Shown here in pieces: positions 11,910 through 26,394 of a stretch of 64,000 bases of DNA (the stretch's first letter is position 1; the number at the start of each line of letters is the position of its first letter). This DNA comes from Candidatus Poribacteria bacterium (lineage in GTDB: Bacteria > Poribacteria > WGA-4E > WGA-3G). The notes under the pieces are model-generated. The model searched no databases and was not told the origin of the DNA. It saw nothing but the letters and a program-made list of their open reading frames with translations. The stretch lies in the NCBI GenBank assembly GCA_965214095.1, contig OZ243938.1, forward strand, positions 2,688,001 to 2,752,000. Reading direction: 5' to 3'. Position numbers and translations under genes: made by a program.

Positions 11910-12022
11910 TTGTTGGAGGGGTTTCTAACCCCGATGCTACAGGTTTATTGTAGCACGGGGTCTCTGTGCCCATCATATCAAATAGACAGAAATTACGACA
12001 GGGTACAGAGACCCCATCCTAC
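11910..12022. repeat. REP cluster between convergent genes (gttggaggggtttctaaccccga; ggtctctgtgccc / gggtacagagacccc)
   Basis: Related copies at 63207-63277 (inverted pair), 8927-8985 and 38646-38670. Confidence 0.7.
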
Positions 12023-12057: not shown

Positions 12058-12561
12058 CTATTTCTGTGAGACACTGTTGCTTTCACTCATCTTCGTCATC
12101 AACGATTCCAGACCATATCCTTGATGTGGTGAATTGGCGATACCAAAACTTACTGCTGCAAGAACAATGTCCATAAACACTGTTCTCCAACTAACTGTTG
12201 TAATTTGAAATCCAATTATATCGAATAGACTAAACAGAAAATTACCACATCCACAATCTGATATAGGCAATTTCTTTAATATCACATTCGCCAATGCAAC
12301 TGCAAATATCAGAAAAAGGAAGGATGACAATATACCTGCACCTCGCGAAAAATAGCCAATGATTAATACCAAACCCAAAGTGATCTCAGCAGAAACAAGC
12401 AGATAACTTATAGGTTTGATAAATCCTGTCGGTAACATCTGATAACTGTCTACATTGACAATAAAAGCACCGAAATTTGAAAGTTTCGCAATTCCAGCAA
12501 AAAGCAGAATTGCACCAAGCAATATTCGTAGACACGTTATCAACATTGATAAAATTGTCAT
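12058..12561 (-). CDS. MauE/DoxX family membrane protein
   Basis: RILLGAILLFAGIAKL, AEITLG, DCGCG motif; likely start MTILSM overlapping the rhodanese stop (ATGA). Confidence 0.85.
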   Translation of the reverse strand: MTILSMLITCLRILLGAILLFAGIAKLSNFGAFIVNVDSYQMLPTGFIKPISYLLVSAEITLGLVLIIGYFSRGAGILSSFLFLIFAVALANVILKKLPISDCGCGNFLFSLFDIIGFQITTVSWRTVFMDIVLAAVSFGIANSPHQGYGLESLMTKMSESNSVSQK

Positions 12562-13055
12562 TCTGTTTTTAATGGGTATCCTAATGCCAACCAACCTCTC
12601 AAACCGCGCGGAAAAAAACGGACGTTTTGATAGCCATGTCCTAACAGCACATTCATCAACTGATAGGCGTTTGGACATGTAATACTGCCACAATATGTAA
12701 TCAATGGTGTTTCTTTATCTGTTGGTAAATCTTGTAAGTACAGTACAATTCGGTTTATAGGTACATTTATTGCACCTGGAATGTGTCCTCGTCTAAAATG
12801 TGCAGTAGAACGCGCATCCACGAATACAGCCTGTTTCTGTTTCCATATCTTGTGGACTGCTGGGAAATCAACTTGAAGGGTTGGATAACTTTGGACGTGT
12901 TGGGTAGTAGAAAGAAGTCCAAACCCGTCTGCTCCCCAAATCGTTAAGGCACCAAAACTGATCCATATACAGATGATTAGCAATTCCTTGATAATAGCGC
13001 GAAAAGTTCTGTGGTCAGAGTTGTTTTCTTGGGATTGCTTTAGAATGTTATACAT
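12558..13055 (-). CDS. Rhodanese-like domain protein with N-terminal TM
   Basis: FVDARS..F..GHIPGAINVP, ITYCGSITCPNA; probable start MYNILK. Confidence 0.88.
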   Translation of the reverse strand: MYNILKQSQENNSDHRTFRAIIKELLIICIWISFGALTIWGADGFGLLSTTQHVQSYPTLQVDFPAVHKIWKQKQAVFVDARSTAHFRRGHIPGAINVPINRIVLYLQDLPTDKETPLITYCGSITCPNAYQLMNVLLGHGYQNVRFFPRGLRGWLALGYPLKTE

Positions 13056-13774
13056 TATTTTCGCTTGAGTTGTGCCCAAGTTGAAGTCACTTTTTCTTCT
13101 GGAATAACGTTTTGCGCAGAAATGGTAAATGAATCTACCCAACCATTTCCAACCCATTCATTGGCAATATTGATACCTTCTACAACAAATCCAAGTGTAT
13201 CAATACGGTTGAAGTTCCGATCTCGGAATTTTGCTCGGAATTCACCATCCGCGAACAGAACAAATAAACCAGAATTAAAATGTAACTCCATCGTATTCAA
13301 TTCATCTGTTTCCCACCGAGTGCGAGGTTCTCTGGACAATCGACTATGAAAAGGATGACTATTCCCTTTACCATTAAAACGTCTTGCTCTAATTTCATCT
13401 GTGAAAAACACATAAAAAAACGGGTCTTCTGTTGGTGTGTCAGGAAAACGCCGTCCAACGCAAAAACCGAGACGTATTTTATCTCCACCGATATCCTTTA
13501 TAATGATAGAAAAGTCTCTATACGGGGTTGGAAACGCTGTAAGTTGATAAAGCTCGTATTGAACTGCCCAATCCCGATCCACCGTAATACGCAGAAATCC
13601 ATCTTCAACTTTCCACACATCATCGTTGCCTACGATGTTCCAAGCGTCTGGATTATCGGTGTCAAAGTCATCGTGCCAGATATCTGCAGATGCCGACACC
13701 ACACTGCTGACTATGATCATCATGAGGGTAATTATTCTAAAGATGGTTTGCATCATAATTCTGTTTCTGACCAC
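13055..13774 (-). CDS. Secreted ConA/DUF1080-like paralog 7 with C-terminal TW.xLK motif
   Basis: Signal peptide; WHDDFD..W.VEDGFL; ends EEKVTSTWAQLKRK. Confidence 0.75.
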   Translation of the reverse strand: MVRNRIMMQTIFRIITLMMIIVSSVVSASADIWHDDFDTDNPDAWNIVGNDDVWKVEDGFLRITVDRDWAVQYELYQLTAFPTPYRDFSIIIKDIGGDKIRLGFCVGRRFPDTPTEDPFFYVFFTDEIRARRFNGKGNSHPFHSRLSREPRTRWETDELNTMELHFNSGLFVLFADGEFRAKFRDRNFNRIDTLGFVVEGINIANEWVGNGWVDSFTISAQNVIPEEKVTSTWAQLKRK

Positions 13775-13890
13775 GGTAGACGAGGTTTCCTAACATCGTC
13801 TATGCAAAACGTTTAATTCTAAAGTCTACTATAGTTGAGAATTCCAACTATTTGCTATACGAAGATCGCTCGGACAGCTTATGTATTAAC

Positions 13891-14652
13891 TTATCTTGGT
13901 GATTCATCTAAACTGATTTTTATGCAATCGTACCAACGGTTAGTTCGCTTTCCCTTCCGACTGATTACGCCTGGTTTTCTCTCAACAGGAAAACCGAAAT
14001 CTCCATCTTTTTGTATTAAGACATGCCAGTCAGGTGGAAACCAAGTGCGTAGAGTTCTGCAATGGACTTCAAGACTTTCACCTTGCCATCCACCAATTTT
14101 GTAATACATAGGACAGACCCATCGTTCTCTCCCTCGTGAATATCGCCGCCATCCCATCACAGAAGCTTGTGCTCGGATTATGTTGCCATCACGCCAGTGA
14201 CGTTCAATCCCACTCCAAGGATAGCCTGTCGTTCCGCCACCAGAACTAATCTCACTCCAACCGAGGTCATCCTGAAGTGTGATATAAGAGACATCAGTAC
14301 CCCAAGGTGTTTCATCGCCCGCAAATCCCCATTTCTGTCGTCTATACCAGTGTAATGCTCCATCAATACTTGACTTAGATACTACCGCATTTTCAATGGT
14401 TTCTACGATGTCAAATTGACCTCTATTGTTGTAGGGATTATGAACACCTTGGCAAAGCGTTAAGGAGTTTATTTCAGGTCCGAACCACTTACGGTTTTTG
14501 CCGGGTGTTCGATAATATGCCCCTGATGCAGCAGGTTCCGCGCGTTCCCCAGGATTCAACTTCGCCTTCGCAAAAGTACTCCAGAACCCAACGCCTAAAA
14601 CAACGAATAGCAAAAACACATCAAAGATTAGGTCTAAATTCTTCCGTAACAT
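13891..14652 (-). CDS. Orphan secreted Trp/Gly/Arg-rich protein with 4 Cys
   Basis: 253-aa ORF with signal peptide, co-oriented in the cluster; no family recognised. Confidence 0.7.
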   Translation of the reverse strand: MLRKNLDLIFDVFLLFVVLGVGFWSTFAKAKLNPGERAEPAASGAYYRTPGKNRKWFGPEINSLTLCQGVHNPYNNRGQFDIVETIENAVVSKSSIDGALHWYRRQKWGFAGDETPWGTDVSYITLQDDLGWSEISSGGGTTGYPWSGIERHWRDGNIIRAQASVMGWRRYSRGRERWVCPMYYKIGGWQGESLEVHCRTLRTWFPPDWHVLIQKDGDFGFPVERKPGVISRKGKRTNRWYDCIKISLDESPR

Positions 14653-14671
14653 TATTCCCTTATTTTATGAA

Positions 14672-15364
14672 CTATTCCTGCTTCAAATTTCCCCAGATAG
14701 TTGTTAGTTTGTTTTTAGGTGATACTGCCAAACCAGATATGGTAATCTTCTCCACCCAGGCATCATCCGTAATCTCTCTATCTGTAACATAAGCAACGAA
14801 CACAAAGCCGATAATATCAATTGTTGATAAGTTCGCGTCAATAAAATCCAAGCGAGCGTCTCCATCACCGAACAATTGAAATCTTCCACTGTCAAATTGA
14901 AGCACCATCTCGTTGAGCACGTCAGTAGGCCAACGTCTGCCAGGTCCGAGGAACACTTTACCATTTCTTGACGCTTGCATATCGTTTGTGAAAAACAGGT
15001 AATATCCAGTTTCCTCAACTTCTCCAGTGTCATTTAAGAAGTGTTTTCCAAGTGCTATACCGATTCTGCTCTCACCAGATGTGCCAATGTTTTCTATATC
15101 AATCGTAATGGTATTATATGGTCCGGGGAATGCTATAAATTGATAAAATTCAAATAGTGTTTGCCACTGTTTCTGCGTATTAATTCTTGCTCTTAAGAAA
15201 CCTTGTTCAATCTGCCAGATAGAATCGCTACCCTGAAGTTGCCAACTATCCTCTAATTCAATCTCAAAATCATCTTGCCATGTAACAGCATTAGCATTTC
15301 CTTGTAAAACAAGTAAGGCAATAATCGTGAGGAGTATTATCAAAATGTTTACACTGTCTTTCAT
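14672..15364 (-). CDS. Secreted ConA/DUF1080-like paralog 6
   Basis: WQDDFE..WQIEQGFL; ends VSPKNKLTTIWGNLKQE. Confidence 0.8.
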   Translation of the reverse strand: MKDSVNILIILLTIIALLVLQGNANAVTWQDDFEIELEDSWQLQGSDSIWQIEQGFLRARINTQKQWQTLFEFYQFIAFPGPYNTITIDIENIGTSGESRIGIALGKHFLNDTGEVEETGYYLFFTNDMQASRNGKVFLGPGRRWPTDVLNEMVLQFDSGRFQLFGDGDARLDFIDANLSTIDIIGFVFVAYVTDREITDDAWVEKITISGLAVSPKNKLTTIWGNLKQE

Positions 15365-15431
15365 GTCATGTCTATCTTCTGTATCTTCTGTTAGTTAATT
15401 TGATGATTTTGCTTCTATTTTCTCTTATGAT

Positions 15432-15875
15432 TTAGACTGTTGCTGGGTCAACTGCTACTATTCTCTTAGAGTTGTAGCGTGCAAAGTCGGATGTATTGAA
15501 AGTCAGGATATGTGTCACTCCATGAACCAACATCGTAGCGACTAACCGCGCATCGTGAACCTGTACACCAGATACACCATAGTTAACGACAAGTTCTCGC
15601 CATTCAGCATATACGCCAGGTGAATCGGGAAGTAAAGGAAAAGTAGATTCTAAATCATGCAAAAGATCGTCTGTTTCCACCAAAGTGAGTCCCAAACCGT
15701 TTCTATCAATGGGACGAGTCGAGACGTTCCAAAATTCAGCGAAATTTTGCATTGTCGTCTGTAATAGATCCTTTTTATTTTTCAATTTGTTTACACATGA
15801 TCTAACAAGTCTGTATCGTTCATCGGATCGGTGTGCAATCCGTAATAAGATGTTTGTATCAACAAGATAAATCAT
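15432..15875 (-). CDS. vapC: PIN-domain (VapC-like) toxin
   Basis: YLVDTNILLR, EFWNV.TRP..NGLG, QVHDARLVA, LTFN.DF. Confidence 0.9.
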   Translation of the reverse strand: MIYLVDTNILLRIAHRSDERYRLVRSCVNKLKNKKDLLQTTMQNFAEFWNVSTRPIDRNGLGLTLVETDDLLHDLESTFPLLPDSPGVYAEWRELVVNYGVSGVQVHDARLVATMLVHGVTHILTFNTSDFARYNSKRIVAVDPATV

Positions 15876-15877
15876 AC

Positions 15878-16153
15878 TTATAAATGATCTTCGTATATTC
15901 CTTCGCGACTCAGCGCGTAATCGGACAAGGGTGGAACATCCGGTCCAACATATTTCATGAACTTTTCTGCTAATTGATCCAACTTTGCCTCAAATTCCTC
16001 AACAGAAAGTGATGGGTTCTCATTCATTAACACATCCACCGTTGGTTCAACTGCATCTACTAACAAATGCCGTACAGCATCTTTATCTCCATTTGATATA
16101 TTTTCGTTTAACCGTTTCTCAATATCTGGTGGAATATAAACTGTAATTGTCAT
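15878..16153 (-). CDS. Cognate antitoxin
   Basis: Small gene directly upstream of the PIN gene; C-terminal PLSDYALSREGIYEDH typical of such antitoxins. Confidence 0.75.
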   Translation of the reverse strand: MTITVYIPPDIEKRLNENISNGDKDAVRHLLVDAVEPTVDVLMNENPSLSVEEFEAKLDQLAEKFMKYVGPDVPPLSDYALSREGIYEDHL

Positions 16154-16208
16154 TTACTCAACCTCCATATTGCTGAAAATTATCTTATAAATAGCACACA
16201 CCTTGTGT

Positions 16209-18308
16209 CTACTGCTTTGCAAATGGTGTTCCATCCGCTTTTCCAAGATAGATCGAATGTGTATCATCACTGCAAAACGGAATCGTTACCTGCTTTTGAA
16301 TATGAACGCGTTGATATGTTTGTGTCTCTTTATCAAATACCGATTGGACCACACGGATATGTAAATTATAACGTTCCTGTGTCAAATTTGTAAACGCAAA
16401 TCTGCCTTGTGCATCGGACTCTGTTTCAAAACGGTCTAATGTTAATGACATATCGTATCGGCTTAATTCCCACGGATACCAAGAGCGAGAAATCAAGGCA
16501 TTTTTCACAGGTTCACCGGTGTCCGTCCAAAGCACTTGTCCATATAAAGCAACCGTAGGTCTGTCTGCTACAATCAACACCTCATTACCATTTGCAGATG
16601 CTTTCACATCAGTTTCGGTTGCAGCAAAGCGGTTTCCTACAATATAGAGTTTATACTTTTCTTCAAACAGACCATCTAAGACAAATGACGTTTCTGTCAC
16701 TGGAAATCGTTTTGACAGCAAAGGTCTGTTCAATACCAATGGATTTAACGTTGACTCCATTTCGGCATCTTCAGGGAACACCTTCACCTCATAATACCCA
16801 TCAATAGGAACATTCTGCGGGAGAATAACACGCCCCTTAACAGCAAACCCTTTTTCAAGTGCAATAATCAGAGGTTCATTGTCAATCTCTATGATCGGAT
16901 GTACTCTTGTCAGATAACCTTTTTTTGATACCTCTATGGAAAGCAAATGTGGTTTTGTGTCTATTAACGGAATTTGAAAAGTGCCGTTTGCATCCGTTTG
17001 CGTCATTGCTAAGAGAACACGGTGTCCGTTAGGGTTTTCACTACGACGTGCTACATAGAGACTCGCATCTGTAATAGGACGTTGCTGTGTATCAACGACT
17101 CTACCGTCTAATATCTTTGTTTTTGGCAAGCGGATTTTAATCGGTTTTTTATGCTGTGGGTTGACCGCCTCTAAAAATGCAATGGTAACATTATTTCGGG
17201 AAATTGTCAAACTGTATTCAATCGGATGGAGTTCTGAGAAGACGAAATTACCTTCTGCATCGGTTTGAACAGTGTGTTCAGGTTGTGCACCAGAGCGAAA
17301 GAAATCACTGGGTTTGTTGTGCATCTTTATCTGCACTGTGAGTCCTCCAACTGTGTAATCTGGTTTTGACTTTTGGACCTTACCTTGTAGTGACAGAAAT
17401 GGTTTCAGTTCAAGTTCGCCTAATGCATATTCAAATTTCTCAGGAGACATATCCCATCGCCAATGGTGCGTTTGATACCGTGGATGCGATGCAATGAGCG
17501 TGAATCCATAATAGGTATCGGAATCATTCGGTATTGTTAGATGGAATTCTCCGTTTGTGTCTGTTTTTGTCTGGTGTGCAAAAGTGCTGTCAGGATAAAC
17601 GGTATCCCTCACTTCAGATGCCGCGTTGATGCTGACTCCTGAGATGTGGAACCCGCTCTCTGCATCAAGGAAAACACCTGAGAGATATGCCCCCGGTTTC
17701 AAAAATACTCCCACACCACCAACATGACTATTCGGATAAATCTTCACCAGAGGTGCTTCGGACATAGCAAAAACATATCCATCAAAAGCATCAATAATGA
17801 CGTACCGGCCCGACAACAGATTTTTGACCTCAAAATATCCGTTAGATACCTCACCTTGGTATGTCCTTTCTATTCGTTCCTTGTCATGTGTGAGCAGGCC
17901 AATCTGGACTTTACCCGTAATTGACAACGGGAGTTTACTAACGGCATCAAGCAGGAAACCTGAAACGGTTCCTGTGCCTTCAATCACAAAATCGGCTTTA
18001 ATTTCGGTTTCTGAAGTGACCGTAATTTCACGTTGTGAAAGTAGTGCGCTGAAGTGTCGGACTTGAACATCCCAAGTGCCAGCAGGAAGGTTTGTGAGCG
18101 AAAATTGCCCACCAGAATCGGTTTTAGCGGCGTAAGTCACCTTGTCTGTTTGTGAAATCGTAGAGACGGTGTACTCTGAGAGTGGGTTGTTCTGTTTATC
18201 TGTTACCTGTCCCTGAATTGTGCCAACATTTTGGGATTGACAGATTCCAATAGAAGTACCAAAACATAGCAGAAGCAAGACGACATAAATAAGGAAAGTG
18301 TTGTACAT
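16209..18308 (-). CDS. Secreted protein with multiple carboxypeptidase-regulatory-like (CnaB/Ig-like) repeats
   Basis: Repeated G.V.D...P / TD..G.F...L motifs; signal peptide. Confidence 0.85.
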   Translation of the reverse strand: MYNTFLIYVVLLLLCFGTSIGICQSQNVGTIQGQVTDKQNNPLSEYTVSTISQTDKVTYAAKTDSGGQFSLTNLPAGTWDVQVRHFSALLSQREITVTSETEIKADFVIEGTGTVSGFLLDAVSKLPLSITGKVQIGLLTHDKERIERTYQGEVSNGYFEVKNLLSGRYVIIDAFDGYVFAMSEAPLVKIYPNSHVGGVGVFLKPGAYLSGVFLDAESGFHISGVSINAASEVRDTVYPDSTFAHQTKTDTNGEFHLTIPNDSDTYYGFTLIASHPRYQTHHWRWDMSPEKFEYALGELELKPFLSLQGKVQKSKPDYTVGGLTVQIKMHNKPSDFFRSGAQPEHTVQTDAEGNFVFSELHPIEYSLTISRNNVTIAFLEAVNPQHKKPIKIRLPKTKILDGRVVDTQQRPITDASLYVARRSENPNGHRVLLAMTQTDANGTFQIPLIDTKPHLLSIEVSKKGYLTRVHPIIEIDNEPLIIALEKGFAVKGRVILPQNVPIDGYYEVKVFPEDAEMESTLNPLVLNRPLLSKRFPVTETSFVLDGLFEEKYKLYIVGNRFAATETDVKASANGNEVLIVADRPTVALYGQVLWTDTGEPVKNALISRSWYPWELSRYDMSLTLDRFETESDAQGRFAFTNLTQERYNLHIRVVQSVFDKETQTYQRVHIQKQVTIPFCSDDTHSIYLGKADGTPFAKQ

Positions 18309-18420
18309 AAGGTTTGCATTTTCTCACTAAGTATAGCATGGACTTAGTATAACTACTGATGTTGCTTGAGTGTTCCCCATGTTGTTGCTAACTTTGTTTG
18401 TGGTGAAACGGATAACCCCC
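18031..18420. repeat. Direct repeat copy 1 (offset 3130 from copy 2)
   Basis: 18031-18279 vs 21161-21409 differ at only 3 positions by eye; weaker similarity extends on both sides. Confidence 0.92.
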
Positions 18421-19240
18421 GTCCCGATATCTTGAATGAATCCACCCATGCATGTCCAACAAGATGAATATCATAACCTGTTACAACAAATCCAATGATT
18501 TCAATTGAAGAAAACCCAGGATCTATAAAGTCTGTCCGTTTTTTACCATTCGCGAACCATTGGAAACGGCCTTTATTGAAATGGATAACCATAGATTCCA
18601 ACTCAAAAGTATTCCAGAAGATGTCAGGATGATGCGGTGCCCGCCAAAATATGAACGAGGCCTCTCCACCCCACCCAGTCAACCGTACTGCTTCTATCCT
18701 GTGTGTTAAAAATAAATAGAAAAAAGGGGCAGGTCCAGGAAAGTTAGGAAATCGCTTCCCAAGTGCAATGCCAAAAGATGCATTATTTGTTCCGATGTCT
18801 TGGACGGTAATGGTAAAGTTTTCATGTCCCGGTTTTTTTATATGTTTCTGAATTTTTTCATCGCCATAGAAAAACTCAAAGTTCTGATAGGGTGGAGGAA
18901 AACCTTTGAATTGTAATACTTCATTTTCTATTATAAAAGGTGTTTGAATCGTTGTTCTTAAAAAGCCTTCCTTTACTTTCCAATCAGAACGATCTCCCCA
19001 AAGATCCCAATCATTTTTTTCCAAAACATCAAAATCATCTTGATAAACTTGAGCGAAAGTGGAATTATTAAAGACACCAAACGAAATAAATAATGTAATA
19101 ACAAGTAAGATACGCATGATACATCTCATTCTACAAATTATCGTAATAGTTACATTTTTCATATATTCGATTTTGATTAGAACCACTTCAAATCTCCCCA
19201 AGTTGTTGTAAGGTGCGTTTCTTGCAACTGGACAGCCCAA
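18353..19240 (-). CDS. Secreted ConA/DUF1080-like paralog 5 (true start probably ~19129-19117)
   Basis: YQDDFDVLEKNDW..WKVKEGFL; ends VSPQTKLATTWGTLKQHQ. Confidence 0.8.
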   Translation of the reverse strand: MGCPVARNAPYNNLGRFEVVLIKIEYMKNVTITIICRMRCIMRILLVITLFISFGVFNNSTFAQVYQDDFDVLEKNDWDLWGDRSDWKVKEGFLRTTIQTPFIIENEVLQFKGFPPPYQNFEFFYGDEKIQKHIKKPGHENFTITVQDIGTNNASFGIALGKRFPNFPGPAPFFYLFLTHRIEAVRLTGWGGEASFIFWRAPHHPDIFWNTFELESMVIHFNKGRFQWFANGKKRTDFIDPGFSSIEIIGFVVTGYDIHLVGHAWVDSFKISGRGLSVSPQTKLATTWGTLKQHQ

Positions 19241-19998
19241 TTCTTGTTAGGAATGCTATCGCCGGAAACCGAGAAACTTGATATGTTTGCCACAAACCAT
19301 TCTCCGCCAAAATGACACGTTATGAGCAATCCTACAACATCAATCTTAGCATATCTATTGTCAACGAATTGGGTTAGCAAAACTCCGTTCGTATACACAC
19401 GGAAATTCCCTGAATTAAAAACAACATTTAGATGCTGGCTAGTCAGTGGGAATTTGTTCCCGTACCTCGCTATCATTCTACCTTTACTAAAATCGTTCTT
19501 TTTCGAAAACGTTGCTTCTCTAATCTCTTCAGGACTGAATATGTACCCTTCAACTGCAAAGTCAACGATGCGGAGTTTTTTCCCAAGAAACAAGCAAATT
19601 TCACCATCGCTATTTGGTCCTTCCTGTACGTAATTCATCTCTACACCAGTCACCTTCAATTTATCAAGTCTAAATTGAAGGGCGTTCCAGTGGAGAAAAT
19701 CAGCAGCAGTATTCTCACATCTTGGGCTGTTCCGCGGTTTACGAATTTGTGAAAAAAGGATACCATCAAAGACTTCCCACTTTGCGTTCCAAATATTGTG
19801 CTCTGCAGTGCGTTCCCATCCGTTAAGTTCATTTCCATCAAACGTGTCTCGCCATGTTCCAGCGGAACTGTGCCTGCACAGAAAGGCACTTAAAAACACT
19901 AAACATAAAAAGGTTTTTATGATTAGCTGTTTTCTATCCACAACAAGATTGAAGAGATTTAAAGACCTACGGAACTCCTTATACACTCTATTTTTCAT
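19177..19998 (-). CDS. Secreted ConA/DUF1080-like paralog 4
   Basis: WRDTFD..LNGWER; ADFLHW; GEICLFLGK; ends LTTTWGDLKWF. Confidence 0.8.
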   Translation of the reverse strand: MKNRVYKEFRRSLNLFNLVVDRKQLIIKTFLCLVFLSAFLCRHSSAGTWRDTFDGNELNGWERTAEHNIWNAKWEVFDGILFSQIRKPRNSPRCENTAADFLHWNALQFRLDKLKVTGVEMNYVQEGPNSDGEICLFLGKKLRIVDFAVEGYIFSPEEIREATFSKKNDFSKGRMIARYGNKFPLTSQHLNVVFNSGNFRVYTNGVLLTQFVDNRYAKIDVVGLLITCHFGGEWFVANISSFSVSGDSIPNKNWAVQLQETHLTTTWGDLKWF

Positions 19999-20004
19999 AA
20001 TAGC

Positions 20005-21438
20005 TTACCTCTTTGTGGTTGGGTGCGTTTCACCTTCAGTGGCACGAATCAGTCCGTAGACAGGAATAGTTATCGGCATCGTTTCTGCTGTAGTTAGTAC
20101 TTTGATTTCTTCGCGCAGCAGTTCAGGTGAATTTGCCACATCCCAAAAAACCTTGTACCGTTTTTCTTGTTTTGCGTGCGCGTTGTAAGCATGCAAGGAT
20201 TGTGACCAATCGTCGGGCGCAGCAACTTGTAAAAAGTTAGGCACCTGAATACTGAGCACCTTGAAATTCTTTTTCGCAGAAAGTGTGAACTCGGCAGATG
20301 GGTTTGCGTCTTTGTCCACTGCTCCATAAGAGAGGGTTTGCGGTTGAACCGTCACGGGTCGCACGATTCTCGCAGCAATCGGCAACGACAAGGTTCGCTC
20401 ATTCGGAAAAGCGACGGTAAGTATTGAGGTAAATAGTTTTTCAGCAGTGTCCGGTTCCAATTTTTTCGGAGCCCGTAACTGAATTGTGATAAGGTAGCAT
20501 TCTGAATTCAGATCTGGAGACATTTTCCAAGTTAAACTCGGGTGTGCTGATGGCATGAGTCGGACTTCCTGTAAATTAAGTGGCGCGTTTACACACAGTT
20601 TAATTTTCTTTTCATGTGTCGTTTCAGATAGGATCTGTCCGAAATCACATATATCAGCACTCAGTGTGGCGAACCGCTTTGATGCAGCTACAATTGTTAG
20701 ATAAACTTGTGGGGTTCTTGGACTATCTGTGAAAATTATAGCTGTTGCTAGTGTTGCGTCAGGTGGAACAAGTTCTGGATCAAGCACAACGTTATCAACG
20801 AAACTGTCAGAGAGAGATGCCCCAGGTTTCAAAAACACTTCCACGCCACCGACATGACCATTAGGATACACTCTCATCTGATAGGAATCGGGTCTTGCAA
20901 AAACATAGCCATCAAAGGAATCTCTAATTTGGTAGTGTCCTGACAACAGATGATTGACCTTGAAATACCCGTTTGATACTTCACCTTGGAAAGTCCTCTC
21001 TATCAATTCATCATCAGAATTGAGCAGACCAATCTCTATCTTATCTGTGATCGGCAATGGGAGTCTATTAACAGAATCAAGTAGGAAACCTGAAATAACA
21101 CCTATGCCTTCAATCACAAAATCGGCGTTAACTTCGGTGTTTTCAGTAATGGTAACTTCACGTTGTGAAAGTAGTGCGCTGAGGTGTCGGACTTGGACAT
21201 CCCAAGTGCCAGCAGGAAGGTTTGTGAGCGAAAATTGCCCACCAGAATCGGTTTTAGCGGCGTAAGTCACCTTGTCTATTTGTGAAATCGTAGAGACGGT
21301 GTACTCTGAGAGTGGGTTGTTCTGTTTATCTGTTACCTGTCCCTGAATTGTGCCAACATTTTGGGATTGACAGATTCCAATAGAAGTACCAAAACATAGC
21401 AGAAGCAAGGCGATATAAGTAAGGATAATGTTGTACAT
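20005..21438 (-). CDS. Chimeric carboxypeptidase-regulatory-like / DUF1573-like Ig-fold protein
   Basis: First ~210 aa duplicate the 16209-18308 protein, then switch to I.TD.P..P / DFGQI / P.TLSYG Ig-like repeats. Confidence 0.75.
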   Translation of the reverse strand: MYNIILTYIALLLLCFGTSIGICQSQNVGTIQGQVTDKQNNPLSEYTVSTISQIDKVTYAAKTDSGGQFSLTNLPAGTWDVQVRHLSALLSQREVTITENTEVNADFVIEGIGVISGFLLDSVNRLPLPITDKIEIGLLNSDDELIERTFQGEVSNGYFKVNHLLSGHYQIRDSFDGYVFARPDSYQMRVYPNGHVGGVEVFLKPGASLSDSFVDNVVLDPELVPPDATLATAIIFTDSPRTPQVYLTIVAASKRFATLSADICDFGQILSETTHEKKIKLCVNAPLNLQEVRLMPSAHPSLTWKMSPDLNSECYLITIQLRAPKKLEPDTAEKLFTSILTVAFPNERTLSLPIAARIVRPVTVQPQTLSYGAVDKDANPSAEFTLSAKKNFKVLSIQVPNFLQVAAPDDWSQSLHAYNAHAKQEKRYKVFWDVANSPELLREEIKVLTTAETMPITIPVYGLIRATEGETHPTTKR

Positions 21439-21550
21439 AAGGTTTGCATTTTCTCACTAAGTATAGCATGGACTTGGTATTACTACTAACGCTGCTTGAG
21501 TTGTCCCCAAGTTGTTGTTAACTTTGCTTGTGGGGAAACGGATAACCCCG
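21161..21550. repeat. Direct repeat copy 2
   Basis: See copy 1 at 18031-18420. Confidence 0.92.
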
Positions 21551-22316
21551 GTCCCGTTATCTTGAGTGAATCGACCCGTCCATGTCCAACACCAAGCCCA
21601 TCGCTTGTAATGAAAAACCCAAAAATCTCAACCGAAGGGAATTCAGGGTCTTCAAATTCCTCGCGTTTTTCACCATTCCCGAACCACTGAAAATGTCCAC
21701 GATTAAAACGAATTTCCATAGATGCTAATTCCGGTGTTTTCCATCGGTTTATAACCTCCAGAATAAACCCCTGTTTTAGCGGCTCCAAAGGTTTAGTATT
21801 AAACGGTGCTCCACCACCGTCCCGCGGACTGACATGCGCAGCGTAAATATCAGTTGGATAAAACAGATAGAAAAATGGGGCGGCTCCAGGGAAGTGGTGA
21901 TGCCGCCTCCCGAGGGCAATCCCAAAACCCTTCTGCTTTCGAGCTATATTTTTTACTGTCATAGTGATGTTTTTATATCCCGGAATTTTTACCAGTCTCT
22001 GAATAAATTCTTGATCGTTGATTTTAAAATCTACAATAGAACCACTGGGATCTTTAAATTGGAGTAGTTCTAATGAGGGATGTAGATCTCCGCCACCGTC
22101 TGGTGACTGTAACCATCCCTTTAAAAATCCATCTTCGGTTTTCCATATAGCATGTTTGCCCCAATGTTCCCAGTTTCTCTCTCTCAAAACATCAAAACCA
22201 TCATGGTAACCTTGTGAAAAAGCAGATGGACAAAAAATACCGGACACAAAGAATAACGTAAGTCCTATTAAGATGCGTATGATATGCTTCATGTTACAAC
22301 TCCTTATCTTAACCAC
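21486..22316 (-). CDS. Secreted ConA/DUF1080-like paralog 3
   Basis: YHDGFD..WKTEDGFL; APFFYLF; ends VSPQAKLTTTWGQLKQR. Confidence 0.8.
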   Translation of the reverse strand: MVKIRSCNMKHIIRILIGLTLFFVSGIFCPSAFSQGYHDGFDVLRERNWEHWGKHAIWKTEDGFLKGWLQSPDGGGDLHPSLELLQFKDPSGSIVDFKINDQEFIQRLVKIPGYKNITMTVKNIARKQKGFGIALGRRHHHFPGAAPFFYLFYPTDIYAAHVSPRDGGGAPFNTKPLEPLKQGFILEVINRWKTPELASMEIRFNRGHFQWFGNGEKREEFEDPEFPSVEIFGFFITSDGLGVGHGRVDSLKITGPGLSVSPQAKLTTTWGQLKQR

Positions 22317-22331
22317 ACGTTTTGATTTTGA

Positions 22332-23159
22332 TTAGAATCGCTTCAACGTTCCCCAAGTTGTCGTGAGTTGTGTCCCTCGTAATTGTACAGCAAGATTAGG
22401 TTTGATTATTGCTTTATCAGAAATCGAGATACTTGATATCCTGCTGCCAAACCAATGTCCTCCGATGTGACACGTAATGAGCAATCCCACAATATCAATA
22501 GTTTCTAAGTTCTCATCAGTGAATTCAGTTATCAGATCGTCGTTTGTGTATACCTGGAAATGGCCAGTATCAAAAACAGCTGTAAGATTGCGTGTTGTGT
22601 TTTGGAATATGTCCCCATACCACGCTTTCGTCTTCCCTCTACTATATTTACCGATCTCCGAAAAGGTAACCTTACTTACCTCTTCGGGACTAACGATATA
22701 ACCTTGGACTGCTAAATCATGATCATCTTGACGTTTCCCAATAAACAAGCAGAGTTCCCCCATTCCATCTCCTCCTTCCTGTGGATAAGTAATCTCTTCA
22801 CCTACTATTGTTAACTGCTCAAAGTTAAATTGGACGATTTTCCAGTGCAGAAAAGAGGCTGTGTTCTTATCACATCTTGGAGGGAGAGCATTTGCCCGAA
22901 TATTGGCAAAGAGGAATCCCGCAACAGCTTCCCATTTGGTATCCCCATTTCCCAGCCAAAATCGTTCCCATCCTTTGAGCTCCTCATCATCAAACGAATC
23001 GTTCCATACCTCACTGTAACTGTGTCCTACTGAAAACATACTCAACAAGACTATACAGATACCGATGTATACAATTCGCAAATTCCGACAGACATCAAAA
23101 TTGAAAACAAACAAGTATTTACGATATTGGTATCTATTTCTGGTCGTTTGATTTCTCAT
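22332..23159 (-). CDS. Secreted ConA/DUF1080-like paralog 2
   Basis: WNDSFD..LKGWER; ASFLHW; GELCLFIGK; ends LTTTWGTLKRF. Confidence 0.8.
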   Translation of the reverse strand: MRNQTTRNRYQYRKYLFVFNFDVCRNLRIVYIGICIVLLSMFSVGHSYSEVWNDSFDDEELKGWERFWLGNGDTKWEAVAGFLFANIRANALPPRCDKNTASFLHWKIVQFNFEQLTIVGEEITYPQEGGDGMGELCLFIGKRQDDHDLAVQGYIVSPEEVSKVTFSEIGKYSRGKTKAWYGDIFQNTTRNLTAVFDTGHFQVYTNDDLITEFTDENLETIDIVGLLITCHIGGHWFGSRISSISISDKAIIKPNLAVQLRGTQLTTTWGTLKRF

Positions 23160-23192
23160 ATATTATGCTTCTCTGTTTTGGTATTCTTATAT

Positions 23193-24146
23193 TCAGAAAC
23201 GTTTTATTTTTCCCCAAGTCGTAGTCAATTGAGTGTTTCCCAACTGCACATCAAAAGCATTATTGGTAGGGATACCTTGCCCAGAAATCGAAAAGGTTGA
23301 GATAGTCCCATCAAACCATTGTCCTGGGAATTCAAACACGCTCATCAAACCAACAACATCAATCATGGGAATCTCATCGTCAAAAAATTCTGTAATTAGA
23401 AGGTCTTGCGTCCAGAGTTGAAACTTACCAGTATCAAAAACAACCCTTATATTACCTGAAGTCAATCGAAACATGAGACCGTAATCAGCTTTCACTTCAC
23501 CTTTCTTGTAAATGCCGTTTTCGGTAAATTGTATTTTTGTTGTCTTTTCAGGACTGAAAATATAACCTGCTGCAAAGTCAGGTGAAGGTTGCCGTTTGCC
23601 GAGGAATAAGCAAAGTTCACCAGAAATGTCTGGAGCAGGATTATTTGGATCACCACGTGGGTAACGGACTTCCTCACCTATCACTGTTATCTTGTCAAGT
23701 TGAAATTGGTGGACATTCCAGTGTAGGAAATCTGCAGCTGTTACATGCTCCTGTTTTGGTTTCCCTATTATTGCAAGAAGGTATCCAGTAGTAAATGGGG
23801 AAACTTCCCATTCTGCAAACCAAGGGACTTCCTCAACAATACGTTCCCAACCATTGAGGGCTATGTCATCAAAATCATCTATCCAAGTTCTAGCATAACC
23901 GTGTCCGATTGCAAAAGCAAACAAGACCACTGCACATAGAACGTATTTCATGATACTCTTCATAATTGTTGTTGTGGGAATAAGTAAGCTACCATTCTTG
24001 TTGAATCGACAGATAAGGTTTGTTCCTTTTGTTCTCATAAAAATCACCTCAAAGTCCATCTGAATAAGAAAATTTTGGATTGGGATACGATGGATACTAA
24101 GTGTATGGAAAGGCAAGTCAAGATTCTCTAAAATGCATATCTGCAT
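23193..24146 (-). CDS. Secreted ConA/DUF1080-like paralog 1 (true start probably ~24038 or ~23963)
   Basis: WIDDFD..LNGWER; ADFLHW; GELCLFLGK; ends LTTTWGKIKRF. Confidence 0.8.
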   Translation of the reverse strand: MQICILENLDLPFHTLSIHRIPIQNFLIQMDFEVIFMRTKGTNLICRFNKNGSLLIPTTTIMKSIMKYVLCAVVLFAFAIGHGYARTWIDDFDDIALNGWERIVEEVPWFAEWEVSPFTTGYLLAIIGKPKQEHVTAADFLHWNVHQFQLDKITVIGEEVRYPRGDPNNPAPDISGELCLFLGKRQPSPDFAAGYIFSPEKTTKIQFTENGIYKKGEVKADYGLMFRLTSGNIRVVFDTGKFQLWTQDLLITEFFDDEIPMIDVVGLMSVFEFPGQWFDGTISTFSISGQGIPTNNAFDVQLGNTQLTTTWGKIKRF

Positions 24147-24205
24147 TCAATCTGTTCTTCAGTATAACCTATCTGATAAAAAGAAACAAGATATTCACTA
24201 AATCT

Positions 24206-24817
24206 TTATTGTTTCAAAGTTGACCAAACTATAGGCAGCAACGGTTCATTCTCAATCAGAATCTCTTCCGCTTTATACGCTTCATCATACCATTCAACGA
24301 TACGCCATTCCCCATCTCTTTTTTCAAAGATAAACAGATTATCTCCTTCAGCAAACCATCCCGTATATTCACCTTGAAATAATTCCCCTGTTCCCACGGA
24401 ACCTTGTATTCGGTAATGAGTTCGCACTTCGGATCGAGTTTTGTCCATATCAATGGATATTTCTGGACGAGATGAGAGTTGTATATTTATATCTTGGAAT
24501 TCACTAAAGACCTTATTCGCTGCATCACGTTCTTCACGTATGTCATCAAATTCTGTGTCATCAGTCTTATCGCCTTCTGTTCCCATATCCCCAACATAAC
24601 GAAAACCTTCCGACCAATACGCGCTCATGTATGTTTCAATATCTTCAATTTCATATCCTTCACGCCACTGTTTTATGACATTGTTGATTGCTAAGACATC
24701 TTCTGGCGGTACTATATCGCTCTTGTCCGGTTCCACAGGAGAAAGGTCTGTATTGCAGGCATAAAAAAGGACGAAGAAAATAAGCACACATCCTATCTTC
24801 GCAAATAGGTTGAACAT
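24206..24817 (-). CDS. NTF2/SnoaL-like lipoprotein
   Basis: Lipobox FYAC; I..VI.QW..GYE..DIE.Y...Y; F.FEKRDGEWRIVEW; ends IVWSTLKQ. Confidence 0.75.
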   Translation of the reverse strand: MFNLFAKIGCVLIFFVLFYACNTDLSPVEPDKSDIVPPEDVLAINNVIKQWREGYEIEDIETYMSAYWSEGFRYVGDMGTEGDKTDDTEFDDIREERDAANKVFSEFQDINIQLSSRPEISIDMDKTRSEVRTHYRIQGSVGTGELFQGEYTGWFAEGDNLFIFEKRDGEWRIVEWYDEAYKAEEILIENEPLLPIVWSTLKQ

Positions 24818-24900
24818 AAATTTATTTCTCCAATTTCATTGTAAGACCAGATTTGATGTATATTCTACTTTATCATTAGTTTTCTAACAATACGTTTTTC

Positions 24901-25008
24901 TTTATAGTGGAATGTAAAAATACGTGCACACTCTCGGTAGATGCGGTTTCCTAACCGCATCTATGAGACTGAACAAACACCAGTTCGGTTTGGAAACCGA
25001 ACCTACCG
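24901..25008. repeat. Composite REP doublet, family A (gtagatgcggtttcctaaccgcatc ... gttcggtttggaaaccgaacctac) with TATAGTG end
   Basis: Near-exact reverse complement of 59561-59668; related to 29767-29962. Confidence 0.85.
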
Positions 25009-25131
25009 TCGTGTATAAATAATTTCTGATATTTTTACAGTTGACCTTAACCTAACAACAATCTGTCTTTTTAACACTTGTAATAGAAGGTATCAATAAT
25101 ACCGAAAACTAAATTACGTTATAGGTTTTAC

Positions 25132-25488
25132 GGGTGTGTAAAGTTTTTGGCAAAATGGACACAGACATCCTGTAGGAGGGATCTCCGAATCGCGAACTGT
25201 CGGGAATCGGATGCCCGCCTGCAAGTGGACATTGGTCAGAAAACAGCAATTATTCAACGATTAAATACCTCTGCGTATGTCATGAATGTTTGCATTAATT
25301 GCATTAATTACTACTATAATTTGGATTTATTTATGAAAAAACCTTCGCGAAAAAATAGCGTTCGATTCAGTCATAATAAGGGATTATCGGTGAGCTGGGT
25401 GTACTTCTGAGGCTGAAAGAATGCGGGGCACGGAGACTCCGCAAGACAATGGTTGGTGAGAACTTAGTGCCAAAAACTTTACATACCC
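25132..25488. mobile_element. Non-autonomous MITE (357 bp)
   Basis: 21-bp TIR GGGTGTGTAAAGTTTTTGGCA / TGCCAAAAACTTTACATACCC (1 mismatch); 8-bp flanking duplication GGTTTTAC at 25124-25131 and 25489-25496; solo end at 35645-35665. Confidence 0.85.
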
Positions 25489-25503
25489 GGTTTTACTATA
25501 AAC

Positions 25504-25532
25504 TTGCTATTACAATAGATTTTCAGTATAAT
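25504..25532 (+). promoter_or_regulatory. sigma70-like promoter
   Basis: TTGCTA-N17-TATAAT upstream of 25630. Confidence 0.55.
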
Positions 25533-25629
25533 AAATTCAGGATAGTTTAGACATTTATCATCATCGATGTTAAGTTATAAGAAACATTTAGAATTATTGG
25601 GTAATGTCAATAAAGGTAGGAGATAGCGG

Positions 25630-25887
25630 ATGAATTACGAGGGATTAAGCGGTTGGATGTTAGATATAATGAGATGTATTAAAGTAATTGATAAATCCCA
25701 ATTTACACTTCAAGAAATGTATGATTTTGAAGTGGCATTAAAGCGCAAACATCCTGACAATGGCAATATAAAACCTAAGATTCGACAACAATTACAGTTA
25801 TTATCAAAACGAGGTCATATCAAATATTTAGGTGATGGAATATACGAATTAACAAATAGTACTAGTGCTGTGTCTACTCTTATTTGA
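25630..25887 (+). CDS. Stand-alone DpnI C-terminal / Dam-replacing winged-helix domain protein
   Basis: GWMLDIMRCI..FTLQEMYDFE..L..KHPDN.NIKPKIRQQLQ.L...G.I..LG.G.Y matches the DpnI_C signature; AGGAG RBS. Confidence 0.85.
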   Translation: MNYEGLSGWMLDIMRCIKVIDKSQFTLQEMYDFEVALKRKHPDNGNIKPKIRQQLQLLSKRGHIKYLGDGIYELTNSTSAVSTLI

Positions 25888-25897
25888 TAGGTAAATA

Positions 25898-26021
25898 TCG
25901 CGATTCGGAGATCGCTCCTACTGAATATAGCTTTGTCGTTGTAGGTCGGGTTTCGTGCCTCTACCCGACATGCATCCCTTTATCATCAATAAAGTCGGGT
26001 TTCGTGCCTCTACCCGACCTA
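25898..26021. repeat. REP cluster (tcgcgattcggagatcgctcctac; two copies of gtcgggtttcgtgcctctacccgac)
   Basis: First unit is the inverse of 25172-25195; the second unit occurs twice (~25945-25969, ~25994-26018). Confidence 0.75.
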
Positions 26022-26057
26022 CAATATAAGAATGGACACTCTACTAGTTAGTATTAA

Positions 26058-26354
26058 AACTTTTCAAAACCCAATGCTTTAGTTTTGGGATGTAGAACGG
26101 AACCAACGATGTGCGGGGTATCACTGACTGCCCAACGAAAGATTAGATGTAATACTACATCGTCAACCATGTAGGTAGGTGGAGAGCATCCATATCATGC
26201 CAGTCGAATGCGAACTGGAACACGTGAGCGGGTTGATATGCAGCACATATCTGCAATATGCGTTACCAAAGTCGCTAAATAGCGAACTCTCAAAAGGAGC
26301 GAGTAGACATATTGTATAAAAGCCCTCCCTGCTTTAGCTGGGGGAGTATGTCAA
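26058..26354 (+). mobile_element. Protein-less IS200/IS605-family mini-element enclosing a hairpin-rich (possible ncRNA) sequence
   Basis: Left-end-like AAAACCCAATGCTTTAGTTTTGGGATGTAG; right-end-like AAGCCCTCCCTGCTTTAGCTGGGGGAGTATGTCAA; several internal hairpins; no ORF listed. Confidence 0.65.
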
Positions 26355-26394
26355 AACGTATTGGATATAGATTGTTTCACACGAGGAACACCAA

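Follow-up and report, generated by a model that had tools for sequence, protein, structure and literature searches.

A lineage-specific Poribacteria gene cassette with a conserved core that includes exported ConA-like proteins and a variable extension

Gene content of the locus

Poribacteria are abundant, uncultivated sponge symbionts. We analysed a cassette of genes at positions 12058..24817 of a 64,000-nucleotide stretch of the genome of a Candidatus Poribacteria bacterium (NCBI GenBank assembly GCA_965214095.1, contig OZ243938.1, positions 2,688,001 to 2,752,000 of the forward strand; the whole stretch is hereafter called the window). The region holds 15 closely spaced open reading frames (ORFs), all on the minus strand and recovered by ORF calling in the order given in an initial annotation that had been made from the DNA letters alone (Table 1). 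They encode seven paralogous proteins with a concanavalin A (ConA)-like fold (P1 to P7), a stalk-like protein (Scaf2) and a chimeric gene product related to it (Scaf1), an exported protein of an undescribed family (Orph), a rhodanese-like protein, a MauE-type membrane protein and three further products. Comparison with relatives reveals a real, undescribed cassette that is specific to this lineage and consists of a conserved core and a variable extension.

Table 1. Features of the locus, with coordinates in the window and the basis of each assignment
Feature	Coordinates	Strand	Basis
Terminator-like hairpin, about 40 nt past the MauE stop	11997..12018	-	Consensus match only
MauE/DoxX-type membrane protein with C-G-C motif; single copy in genome	12058..12561	-	PF07291, 2.2e-20
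Rhodanese-like protein, exported or membrane-tethered, with Y-C-x4-C-P loop	12558..13055	-	PF00581, 2.2e-15
P7, core ConA-like paralog, B subtype, TTWG-type tail	13055..13774	-	Alignment, tag regular expression, synteny
Orph, 253 aa, exported, undescribed family	13891..14652	-	Alignment A2; no Pfam or PDB sequence match
P6, core ConA-like paralog, B subtype, TTWG tail	14672..15364	-	AlphaFold2 model, Foldseek, VIA, synteny
PIN/VapC-type toxin, variable insertion	15432..15875	-	PF01850, 2.5e-10; TIGR00028, 3e-12 (below cut-off)
Antitoxin-like small ORF, 91 aa, 2 nt upstream of the PIN gene	15878..16153	-	Position only
Scaf2, 699 aa, exported, tandem CarboxypepD_reg (transthyretin-like) repeats; first gene of the conserved core	16209..18308	-	PF13620, 1.3e-44
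P5, accessory B-subtype paralog, tagged; true start probably downstream of the longest-ORF start	18353..19240	-	Best relatives 32-53% identical
P4, accessory A-subtype paralog, tagged	19177..19998	-	PF06439 sub-threshold
Scaf1, 477 aa, chimeric gene	20005..21438	-	Scaf2 N-terminus plus DUF1573-like C-terminal part
P3, accessory B-subtype paralog, tagged	21486..22316	-	Alignment, tag regular expression
P2, accessory A-subtype paralog, tagged	22332..23159	-	Alignment, tag regular expression
P1, accessory A-subtype paralog, tagged; start likely near 23963	23193..24146	-	Alignment, tag regular expression
NTF2/SnoaL-like exported protein, tag-like end (…VWSTLKQ)	24206..24817	-	SnoaL_3, E 0.003 (below cut-off); in 11 near-clade loci

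A conserved core and a variable extension

A scan for relatives of P6 gave 45 loci from 45 assemblies, all of them Poribacteria, in which the ORFs were labelled iteratively. Scaf2 precedes P6 in 44 of the 45 loci and Orph follows P6 in equally many, the single misses being a contig start and a contig end, respectively; P7 follows Orph in 42 loci, with two contig ends and one rearranged locus (L008) accounting for the remainder. The genes that flank the locus in the window (g10809, g9105 and g8112) are retained in only 4 of the 45 loci. Co-conservation of the genes in relatives, on which the initial annotation had made its proposal depend, is therefore observed for the core order (42-44 of 45 loci) against a background of flanks that are rarely kept. 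Outside the core, P1 to P5, Scaf1, the NTF2-like gene and the PIN pair vary between loci, and the number of paralogs upstream of Scaf2 ranges from zero to about four in relatives and reaches five in the window. In the near clade, 21 loci carry the rhodanese and MauE genes directly after P7; the 22 distant loci (P6 54-62% identical) lack MauE and have an extra copy of Orph, placed between Scaf2 and P6.

The conserved unit consists of the stalk protein, Orph and ConA-like proteins, to which a rhodanese, MauE and a DUF1573-like protein are added in most lineages. The cassette with the rhodanese, MauE and DUF1573-like genes recurs in two other families, represented by the genomes G034, G010 and G011, and is thus found in three families in total. 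In G034 the order is Scaf2, Orph, three ConA-like genes, rhodanese, MauE, DUF1573-like gene and an A-subtype paralog; in G010 it is two ConA-like genes, rhodanese, MauE, DUF1573-like gene, an Orph-like gene and a further ConA-like gene. Another genome, G072, has Scaf2, P6, Orph, P7, a P5-like gene, rhodanese, MauE and the DUF1573-like gene. The initial annotation had expected the orphan to vary around a constant MauE and rhodanese; the comparison reverses this, with Orph the most conserved gene and MauE missing from all 65 genomes of a genus in which the core is retained. A narrow literature search combining Poribacteria with concanavalin or lectin returned only a review of sponge lectins that mentions Poribacteria, which does not make the cassette unpublished.

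The paralogs are ConA-like lectin-fold proteins

Alignment of all seven paralogs gave 16 invariant columns and revealed the two subtypes that had been proposed from their motifs, FLHW and CLF.GK in one (A) and QF and FY.F in the other (B). Paralogs of the same subtype as P7 are 34-40% identical to it, and those of the other subtype 19-21%. The AlphaFold2 model of P6, built from 67 sequences, is a ConA-like jelly roll with a mean predicted local distance difference test (pLDDT) score of 85, in which the tail is modelled as a low-confidence terminal helix. Foldseek matched this model to GH16 enzymes and legume lectins (E about 1e-7, TM-score about 0.5), and VIA gave Z scores of 15.0-15.9 to a mycobacteriophage fibre tip, BT3469 (4jqt), the lectin domain of galactocerebrosidase and CBM66; BT3469 ranks third (Z 15.6; root-mean-square deviation 3.4 over 173 residues). 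Structure prediction and fold comparison thus agree with the earlier suggestion that the paralogs are lectin-like.

The relation of the paralogs to PF06439 (DUF1080, 3-keto-disaccharide hydrolase) is weak. None of the seven reaches the gathering score of 26.8 bits, the best being P4 with 23.6 bits (5.9e-5) over its N-terminal 60 residues only, and a genome scan with PF06439 found five places, none within the locus. A profile of the paralogs compared with the PDB gave weak N-terminal matches (E about 0.5) to six chains whose annotation reads putative glycosyl hydrolase or 3-keto-disaccharide hydrolase. Furthermore, the profile of alignment A1 matches an ORF at 786926-787651 (3.2e-6) that carries the C-terminal tag described below and itself passes PF06439 (6.6e-14). 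Because these links are weak and sub-threshold, we name the paralogs ConA-like lectin-fold proteins and not members of PF06439. With PF06439 and other ConA-like lectin or carbohydrate-binding domains (CBM66, legume lectins) they share the jelly-roll fold, a similar size and an N-terminal W-x-D strand; they differ by the added TTWG tail and by a family-specific loop that is predicted to bind Orph.

Elsewhere in the genome, members of the paralog family form only one adjacent pair, at C1:4377066-4380192 (L053:5067-8193). One of the two, of 763 aa, has an N-terminal WD40 propeller followed by a ConA-like domain and the tag, and its partner is a stand-alone protein of 257 aa; neither Orph nor the stalk protein is encoded nearby.

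Orph is the best-conserved gene of the locus

Median identity of Orph to its relatives is 85% in the near clade and 79% in the far clade, relative to 73% and 65% for P7, 70% and 56% for P6, and 71% and 53% for Scaf2. Within the phylum, 114 of 176 genomes have it, so that the label of orphan under which it was first listed does not hold. By family, it occurs in 109 of 111 genomes of the window's own family, in none of the genomes of three others (0 of 11, 0 of 7 and 0 of 8) and in 2 of 29 and 2 of 3 genomes of two more. Among 1.84 billion representative proteins the Orph profile matched only 38 clusters; of the ten that were looked up, both with an organism name are Poribacteria.

The alignment of 64 Orph sequences (A2) contains 55 invariant columns, three of them cysteines. 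An N-terminal hydrophobic helix is followed by invariant A28 and A30 and then by a beta-rich domain that holds the three cysteines; the A-x-A next to the helix suggests a cleaved signal peptide and not a membrane anchor. Orph has no sequence match in Pfam, NCBIfam or the PDB, and a profile search of the PDB likewise returned zero matches; across the 64 members Pfam gave only Zincin_1, at E of at least 0.0057, in 17 of them. The AlphaFold2 model (pLDDT 76) consists mostly of long antiparallel strands. Compared with the PDB, it yielded nothing at E<=0.001 with Foldseek and a best Z of 3.2 over 48,161 chains in a wide VIA search, and an Atlas search with the Orph homologue P0121 gave no usable match; such weak or absent fold matches do not prove a new fold.

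A metagenomic protein of 3587 aa with 20 CARDB stretches (P0144) gave 15 matches to the Orph profile over profile positions 76-139, with a summed E of 1.7e-22. Judged by these matches, part of Orph may be distantly CARDB-like; Pfam detected CARDB in none of the 64 Orph sequences.

A predicted complex of P6, P7 and Orph

Mature P6, P7 and Orph were co-folded in three runs with Orph as the scored partner, alongside three controls. The interaction prediction score from aligned errors (ipSAE) was 0.82, 0.01 and 0.78 (median 0.78), relative to 0.00 for the best of the three controls; in the calibration of the tool, 116 of 157 solved complexes attained the mark, as did 2 of 215 mismatched pairs, a set that is only a rough fit to a three-chain job with its own alignment. 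The runs share at least 16% of their contacts, and the pLDDT of the partner is at least 58. In the predicted interface, Orph contributes residues 164-166, 181-211 and 236-242, P6 residues 133-146, and P7 residues 129-143 and 199-206; the P6 loop contains three of the six near-invariant residues of the family (alignment A3), and the C-terminal tails of both paralogs lie outside. The models place Orph between P6 and P7 and support its binding to them without demonstrating it.

A C-terminal tag shared across the phylum

The last 15-20 residues of the paralogs follow the pattern …V-S/E-P-x-x-K-L-T-T-T-W-G-x-L-K-x-x. In all seven paralogs and in the NTF2-like protein the motif V-E/S-P-x-G-K-L-T/A-T-T-W-G/A-x-L/I-K lies within 5 residues of the C-terminus. 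Throughout the 5.25-Mb genome, the regular expression W[GSA].[LIVM]K.{0,5}$ was found in 148 of the 15,299 ORFs that reach 60 aa, as against one at a control offset, and 148 of the 203 occurrences of the core motif sit at the C-terminus. The tagged ORFs are mostly 230-300 aa long, exported and spread across the genome; an N-terminal hydrophobic stretch is present in 133 of the 148, compared with 1220 of 3070 among the remaining ORFs that reach 200 aa. Of the 176 genomes of the phylum, 173 contain a degenerate DNA pattern for the tag and none its reversed control. No other cluster of tagged ORFs in the genome is as large as the cassette, which has eight (the seven paralogs and the NTF2-like gene); the next largest has four. 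Of the framework that the initial annotation saw in the paralogs, the LTTTWGxLK end belongs to this Poribacteria-wide tag and is not a feature of the family.

Two explanations of the tag were rejected. A tripartite sorting signal of the LPXTG, PEP-CTERM or GlyGly-CTERM kind does not fit, as the proteins end 1-5 residues past the lysine of the motif, with no room for a helix; a narrow search found no literature on a C-terminal sorting signal in Poribacteria. Nor is Orph a universal reader of the tag, since tags occur in families that have no Orph (tags in 11 of 11 and 7 of 7 genomes of two families, Orph in 0 of 11 and 0 of 7); the position of the tails outside the predicted P6-P7-Orph interface also counts against this role.

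A rhodanese-MauE pair coupled to the core

The MauE protein scores 73.7 bits with PF07291 (cut-off 27) and also matches DoxX (PF07681, 7.3e-6), and the rhodanese scores 57.3 bits with PF00581 (cut-off 22.2). The cysteine motifs read earlier from the sequence, CGSITC in the rhodanese and DCGC in MauE, are present, and the C-G-C of MauE and the Y-C-x4-C-P of the rhodanese are invariant in 27 of the 27 orthologues examined; the second cysteine of the rhodanese loop is atypical. Stop and start codons overlap between P7 and the rhodanese gene (TAATG) and between the rhodanese and MauE genes (ATGA, with the MauE ATG at 12561); on the evidence of these overlaps, the pair appears to be translationally coupled to P7 in the window.

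Orthologues of MauE were found in 47 of the 176 genomes, namely in 38 of 39 genomes of the window's genus, in 0 of 65 of its sister genus, and also in G034, G010 and G011 of the two other families. Orph is present in 47 of the 47 genomes with MauE, and MauE in 0 of the 62 genomes without Orph. A comparison of coordinates placed MauE within 5 kb of the Orph gene in 37 of the 47; in the remaining ten it lies on another contig or elsewhere in the genome. Probably the ancestral cassette already had the pair, and one genus later lost it; the thiol module thus goes with the core and is nevertheless dispensable. The dedicated thiol module of the initial annotation is accordingly upheld in so far as rhodanese and MauE travel with the cassette in three families, and is not upheld as a fixed part, given that all 65 genomes of one genus have lost them. 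The idea that the module matures the paralogs fared less well: mature P5 and P6 contain no cysteine, and P7 and P1 one each, which makes the cysteine-poor paralogs poor clients.

DsbB (PF02600) and VKOR (PF07884) were detected neither in the window's genome (G000) nor in four genomes of the sister-genus type (G001, G003, G004 and G005); the latter four also lack MauE and hence show none of the three known membrane disulfide oxidases. In another genome the cassette-linked MauE gene is broken by two in-frame TAG codons (G076:C1:1485763-1486233), which suggests decay. Eleven short ORFs after P7 in the far clade, labelled iteratively as rhodanese-like, were not counted, as none of the six tested had a Pfam match.

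According to the accessible text of a preprint (Gonzalez et al., bioRxiv 10.64898/2026.03.05.709764), MauE is a quinone-linked oxidase of the DsbB type with a CXC active site, and MauE proteins substitute for DsbB in E. coli, for which the CXC motif is needed; MauE is argued there to be a generalist oxidase. As in that MauE-centred pathway and in DsbB-DsbA, the gene of a MauE-family membrane protein with CXC lies here beside that of an exported two-cysteine partner. The partner described in the preprint is DsbA or MauD, of thioredoxin fold, whereas the coupled neighbour here has a rhodanese domain with a C-x4-C loop, the word rhodanese being absent from the preprint's accessible text, and Pfam assigned a thioredoxin fold to no gene of the locus. 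Moreover, the pair here sits within a lectin-fold cassette, and one genus has lost it. A second likeness is to DoxX-SseA-SodA of Mycobacterium tuberculosis, which the available part of its description presents as a membrane-associated oxidoreductase complex with the rhodanese SseA (PMC6930017): both systems join a DoxX-type integral membrane protein to a rhodanese-type thiol oxidoreductase. As described in that part, the complex faces the cytoplasm and serves superoxide detoxification, whereas the locus here has no SodA, and its proteins have export signals and other cysteine motifs. A narrow search found no literature that joins DUF1573 and MauE.

Scaffolds, variable genes and flanking sequence

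Scaf2 matches PF13620 (CarboxypepD_reg) with 150.9 bits in five stretches and Scaf1 with 63.9 bits in one; the repeats in both are therefore transthyretin-like by Pfam and not CnaB domains as initially annotated. Scaf1 combines two sources. Its residues 1-215 are 77% identical to the N-terminus of Scaf2, and its residues 217-477 share 85% identity, over 261 aa, with residues 98-358 of a protein (L012:3145-4218, 358 aa) encoded ahead of the A and B paralogs in the related locus L012. Two other loci (L006 and L032) have homologues of this C-terminal part downstream of MauE or P7, and these match PF07610 (DUF1573). The part derived from Scaf2 is about 74% identical to its source at the DNA level, and the duplication is therefore old. 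Scaf1 has the appearance of a junction left when a unit of A paralog, B paralog and scaffold was duplicated in tandem long ago; relatives encode the DUF1573-like protein whole.

The two genes that the initial annotation called toxin-antitoxin are a putative pair of the VapBC type: the PIN domain of the toxin gene (PF01850) is above its cut-off, the same gene scores 47 bits with TIGR00028 (cut-off 73.6), and the 91-aa product of the ORF upstream matched no antitoxin or other family in Pfam or NCBIfam. The two genes sit between Scaf2 and P6 in some near-clade loci and in 0 of the 22 far-clade loci, a distribution consistent with the insertion of a mobile toxin-antitoxin pair into the operon. At the other end of the locus, the gene annotated as NTF2-like is present at 24206; its Pfam matches to NTF2/SnoaL-like families are sub-threshold only (E 0.003-0.03).

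Terminator-like sites in the region number 9, relative to 10.8 expected, and a promoter scan was uninformative (35 sites, 35.8 expected). Rfam and tRNA scans of 10-28 kb gave no match. Upstream of the locus, 24818-26394 is a gene-poor stretch of 1.5 kb in the window's bin of lowest G+C content (0.37 at 24001-26000); it shows high depth and many loose ends in contigs from RNA libraries and yielded no Rfam family or tRNA.

The region 12.0-17.0 kb is covered by contigs from four RNA libraries of a single study, which sampled a strain 90-95% identical; one of these contigs reaches from P7 to Scaf2. They are compatible with expression, if weakly. A contig of run X4 joins 18157 to 24212, that is Scaf2 to the NTF2-like gene, with 173 other letters between, and the sampled strain therefore probably lacks P1 to P5 and Scaf1. 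Going by this joint, these genes are probably a strain-level presence/absence polymorphism. No RNA-library contig covers 18.5-24 kb; as the sampled strain probably lacks the array, this is uninformative on expression there.

Discussion

Taken together, the observations lead us to propose, tentatively and as somewhat less than an even chance, that the cassette encodes an exported, lectin-like binding complex of the envelope, assembled on Orph and served by a MauE-rhodanese relay for its cysteine-bearing members. All core members, namely the stalk-like CarboxypepD_reg protein, Orph, P6 and P7, are exported proteins, and Orph would act as a hub that holds P6 and P7 side by side via their common loop (R..G....P..RW.T). 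The TTWG tails would be left free for a tag reader, and the lectin faces would bind glycan from the matrix of the sponge host or from the cell's own envelope. Rhodanese and MauE would form a disulfide relay, with the rhodanese in the place of DsbA; its clients would be Orph, the DUF1573-like protein and the A-subtype paralogs, and would not include P5 and P6, which have no cysteine. P1 to P5 and the chimeric Scaf1 would have arisen from old tandem duplication and recombination, and their differences between close strains would widen the range of ligands. A bolder version seems to us quite unlikely, in which Orph founds a new fold and is the hub of a novel lectin complex of two tagged ConA-like subunits on a transthyretin-repeat stalk, with strain-variable subunits tuning the recognition of sponge glycans and a DsbA-free MauE-rhodanese relay maturing the hub, the whole being a symbiosis-specific organelle of host recognition.

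Several points weigh against the proposed complex and its relay. One of the three co-fold runs scored 0.01, Orph was no longer placed on P6 when P7 was swapped for an unrelated protein (0.00), and the job is unlike the set on which the tool was calibrated; the interface is, moreover, not more conserved than the rest of the proteins (Orph 0.68 vs 0.72, P6 0.75 vs 0.77, P7 0.89 vs 0.83, p=0.13). Conserved gene order may partly be accounted for by shared descent within one phylum. A second locus of G034 (L048, G034:C21) has the stalk protein, two ConA-like genes, rhodanese, MauE and the DUF1573-like gene and no Orph, and one genome (G074) has the core with the DUF1573-like gene and its rhodanese-MauE pair elsewhere. 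Rhodanese and MauE are found in 0 of 65 genomes of the sister genus, where the core and the invariant cysteines of Orph are nevertheless kept, and PF07291 is absent from the five of five genomes of the sister-genus type that were tested; the relay is therefore not required. The RNA-library contigs cannot prove transcript, strand or absence of DNA. Gene content, fold, conservation, synteny and motifs are thus shown here and the complex is predicted, while glycan binding by the ConA-like proteins, the clients of the relay and the role of the stalk are inferred.

The paralogs could instead be independent secreted enzymes of the DUF1080 type, or carbohydrate-binding proteins used in feeding on sponge glycans, which would owe their clustering solely to tandem duplication and common export and would not assemble with Orph or the stalk protein. 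This is doubtful, though by no means negligible: the sub-threshold N-terminal match of P4 to PF06439, the weak profile matches to six hydrolase-annotated PDB chains, the A1-profile link to the PF06439-passing tagged ORF, the third rank of BT3469 in the VIA comparison and the dispersal of about 148 tagged exported ORFs over the genome all point that way. Against it, no paralog reaches the PF06439 cut-off and none of the five PF06439 places of the genome lies here; among the 15 genes Pfam identified neither a sugar-oxidising partner nor a transporter nor a glycoside hydrolase, and the co-fold passed its controls. Furthermore, duplication alone leaves the fixed order Scaf2-(Orph)-P6-Orph-P7 unexplained, kept as it is in 42-44 of 45 loci amid fast-changing flanks. 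The rival that the initial annotation itself had offered, an array of effectors with immunity or accessory proteins, or another polymorphic system of toxin type that includes the PIN pair, is very improbable. Accessory paralogs do turn over between close strains and a PIN toxin gene does lie inside the locus, but Pfam and NCBIfam recognised none of the paralogs as a secretion-system gene or as having a toxin, nuclease or peptidase domain, every paralog bears export signals and the common tag, which sets them apart from cytoplasmic immunity proteins, and the patchy occurrence of the PIN pair is as expected for a mobile insertion.

For the thiol module, the alternative is that rhodanese and MauE are the general disulfide pathway of the cell and merely adjoin the cassette, with no dedicated link to the lectin-fold proteins. 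That MauE is single-copy in a genome in which neither DsbB nor VKOR was detected speaks for such a role, as do the lack of cysteines in P5 and P6, the persistence of the core in all 65 genomes of a genus that has no MauE, and the generalist activity argued for in the accessible text of the preprint (10.64898/2026.03.05.709764). We nevertheless consider it unlikely. Proximity to Orph within 5 kb extends to 37 of 47 genomes, including the three from two other families; every genome with MauE holds Orph and no genome devoid of Orph has MauE; and the stop-start overlaps tie the module to P7. In addition, the genus that lost MauE shows no replacement by DsbB or VKOR in four of four genomes tested, which would be odd for a housekeeping function.

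The cassette joins the densest cluster of TTWG-tagged proteins in the genome to a highly conserved protein of no recognisable fold, and it yields a concrete prediction of a three-protein complex. It also offers a natural case of a MauE oxidase paired with a rhodanese in place of a DsbA-type partner, and it narrows the search for the reader of the tag by excluding Orph as a universal one. If the complex and a glycan ligand prove true, the cassette would provide a first molecular handle on host binding in Poribacteria.

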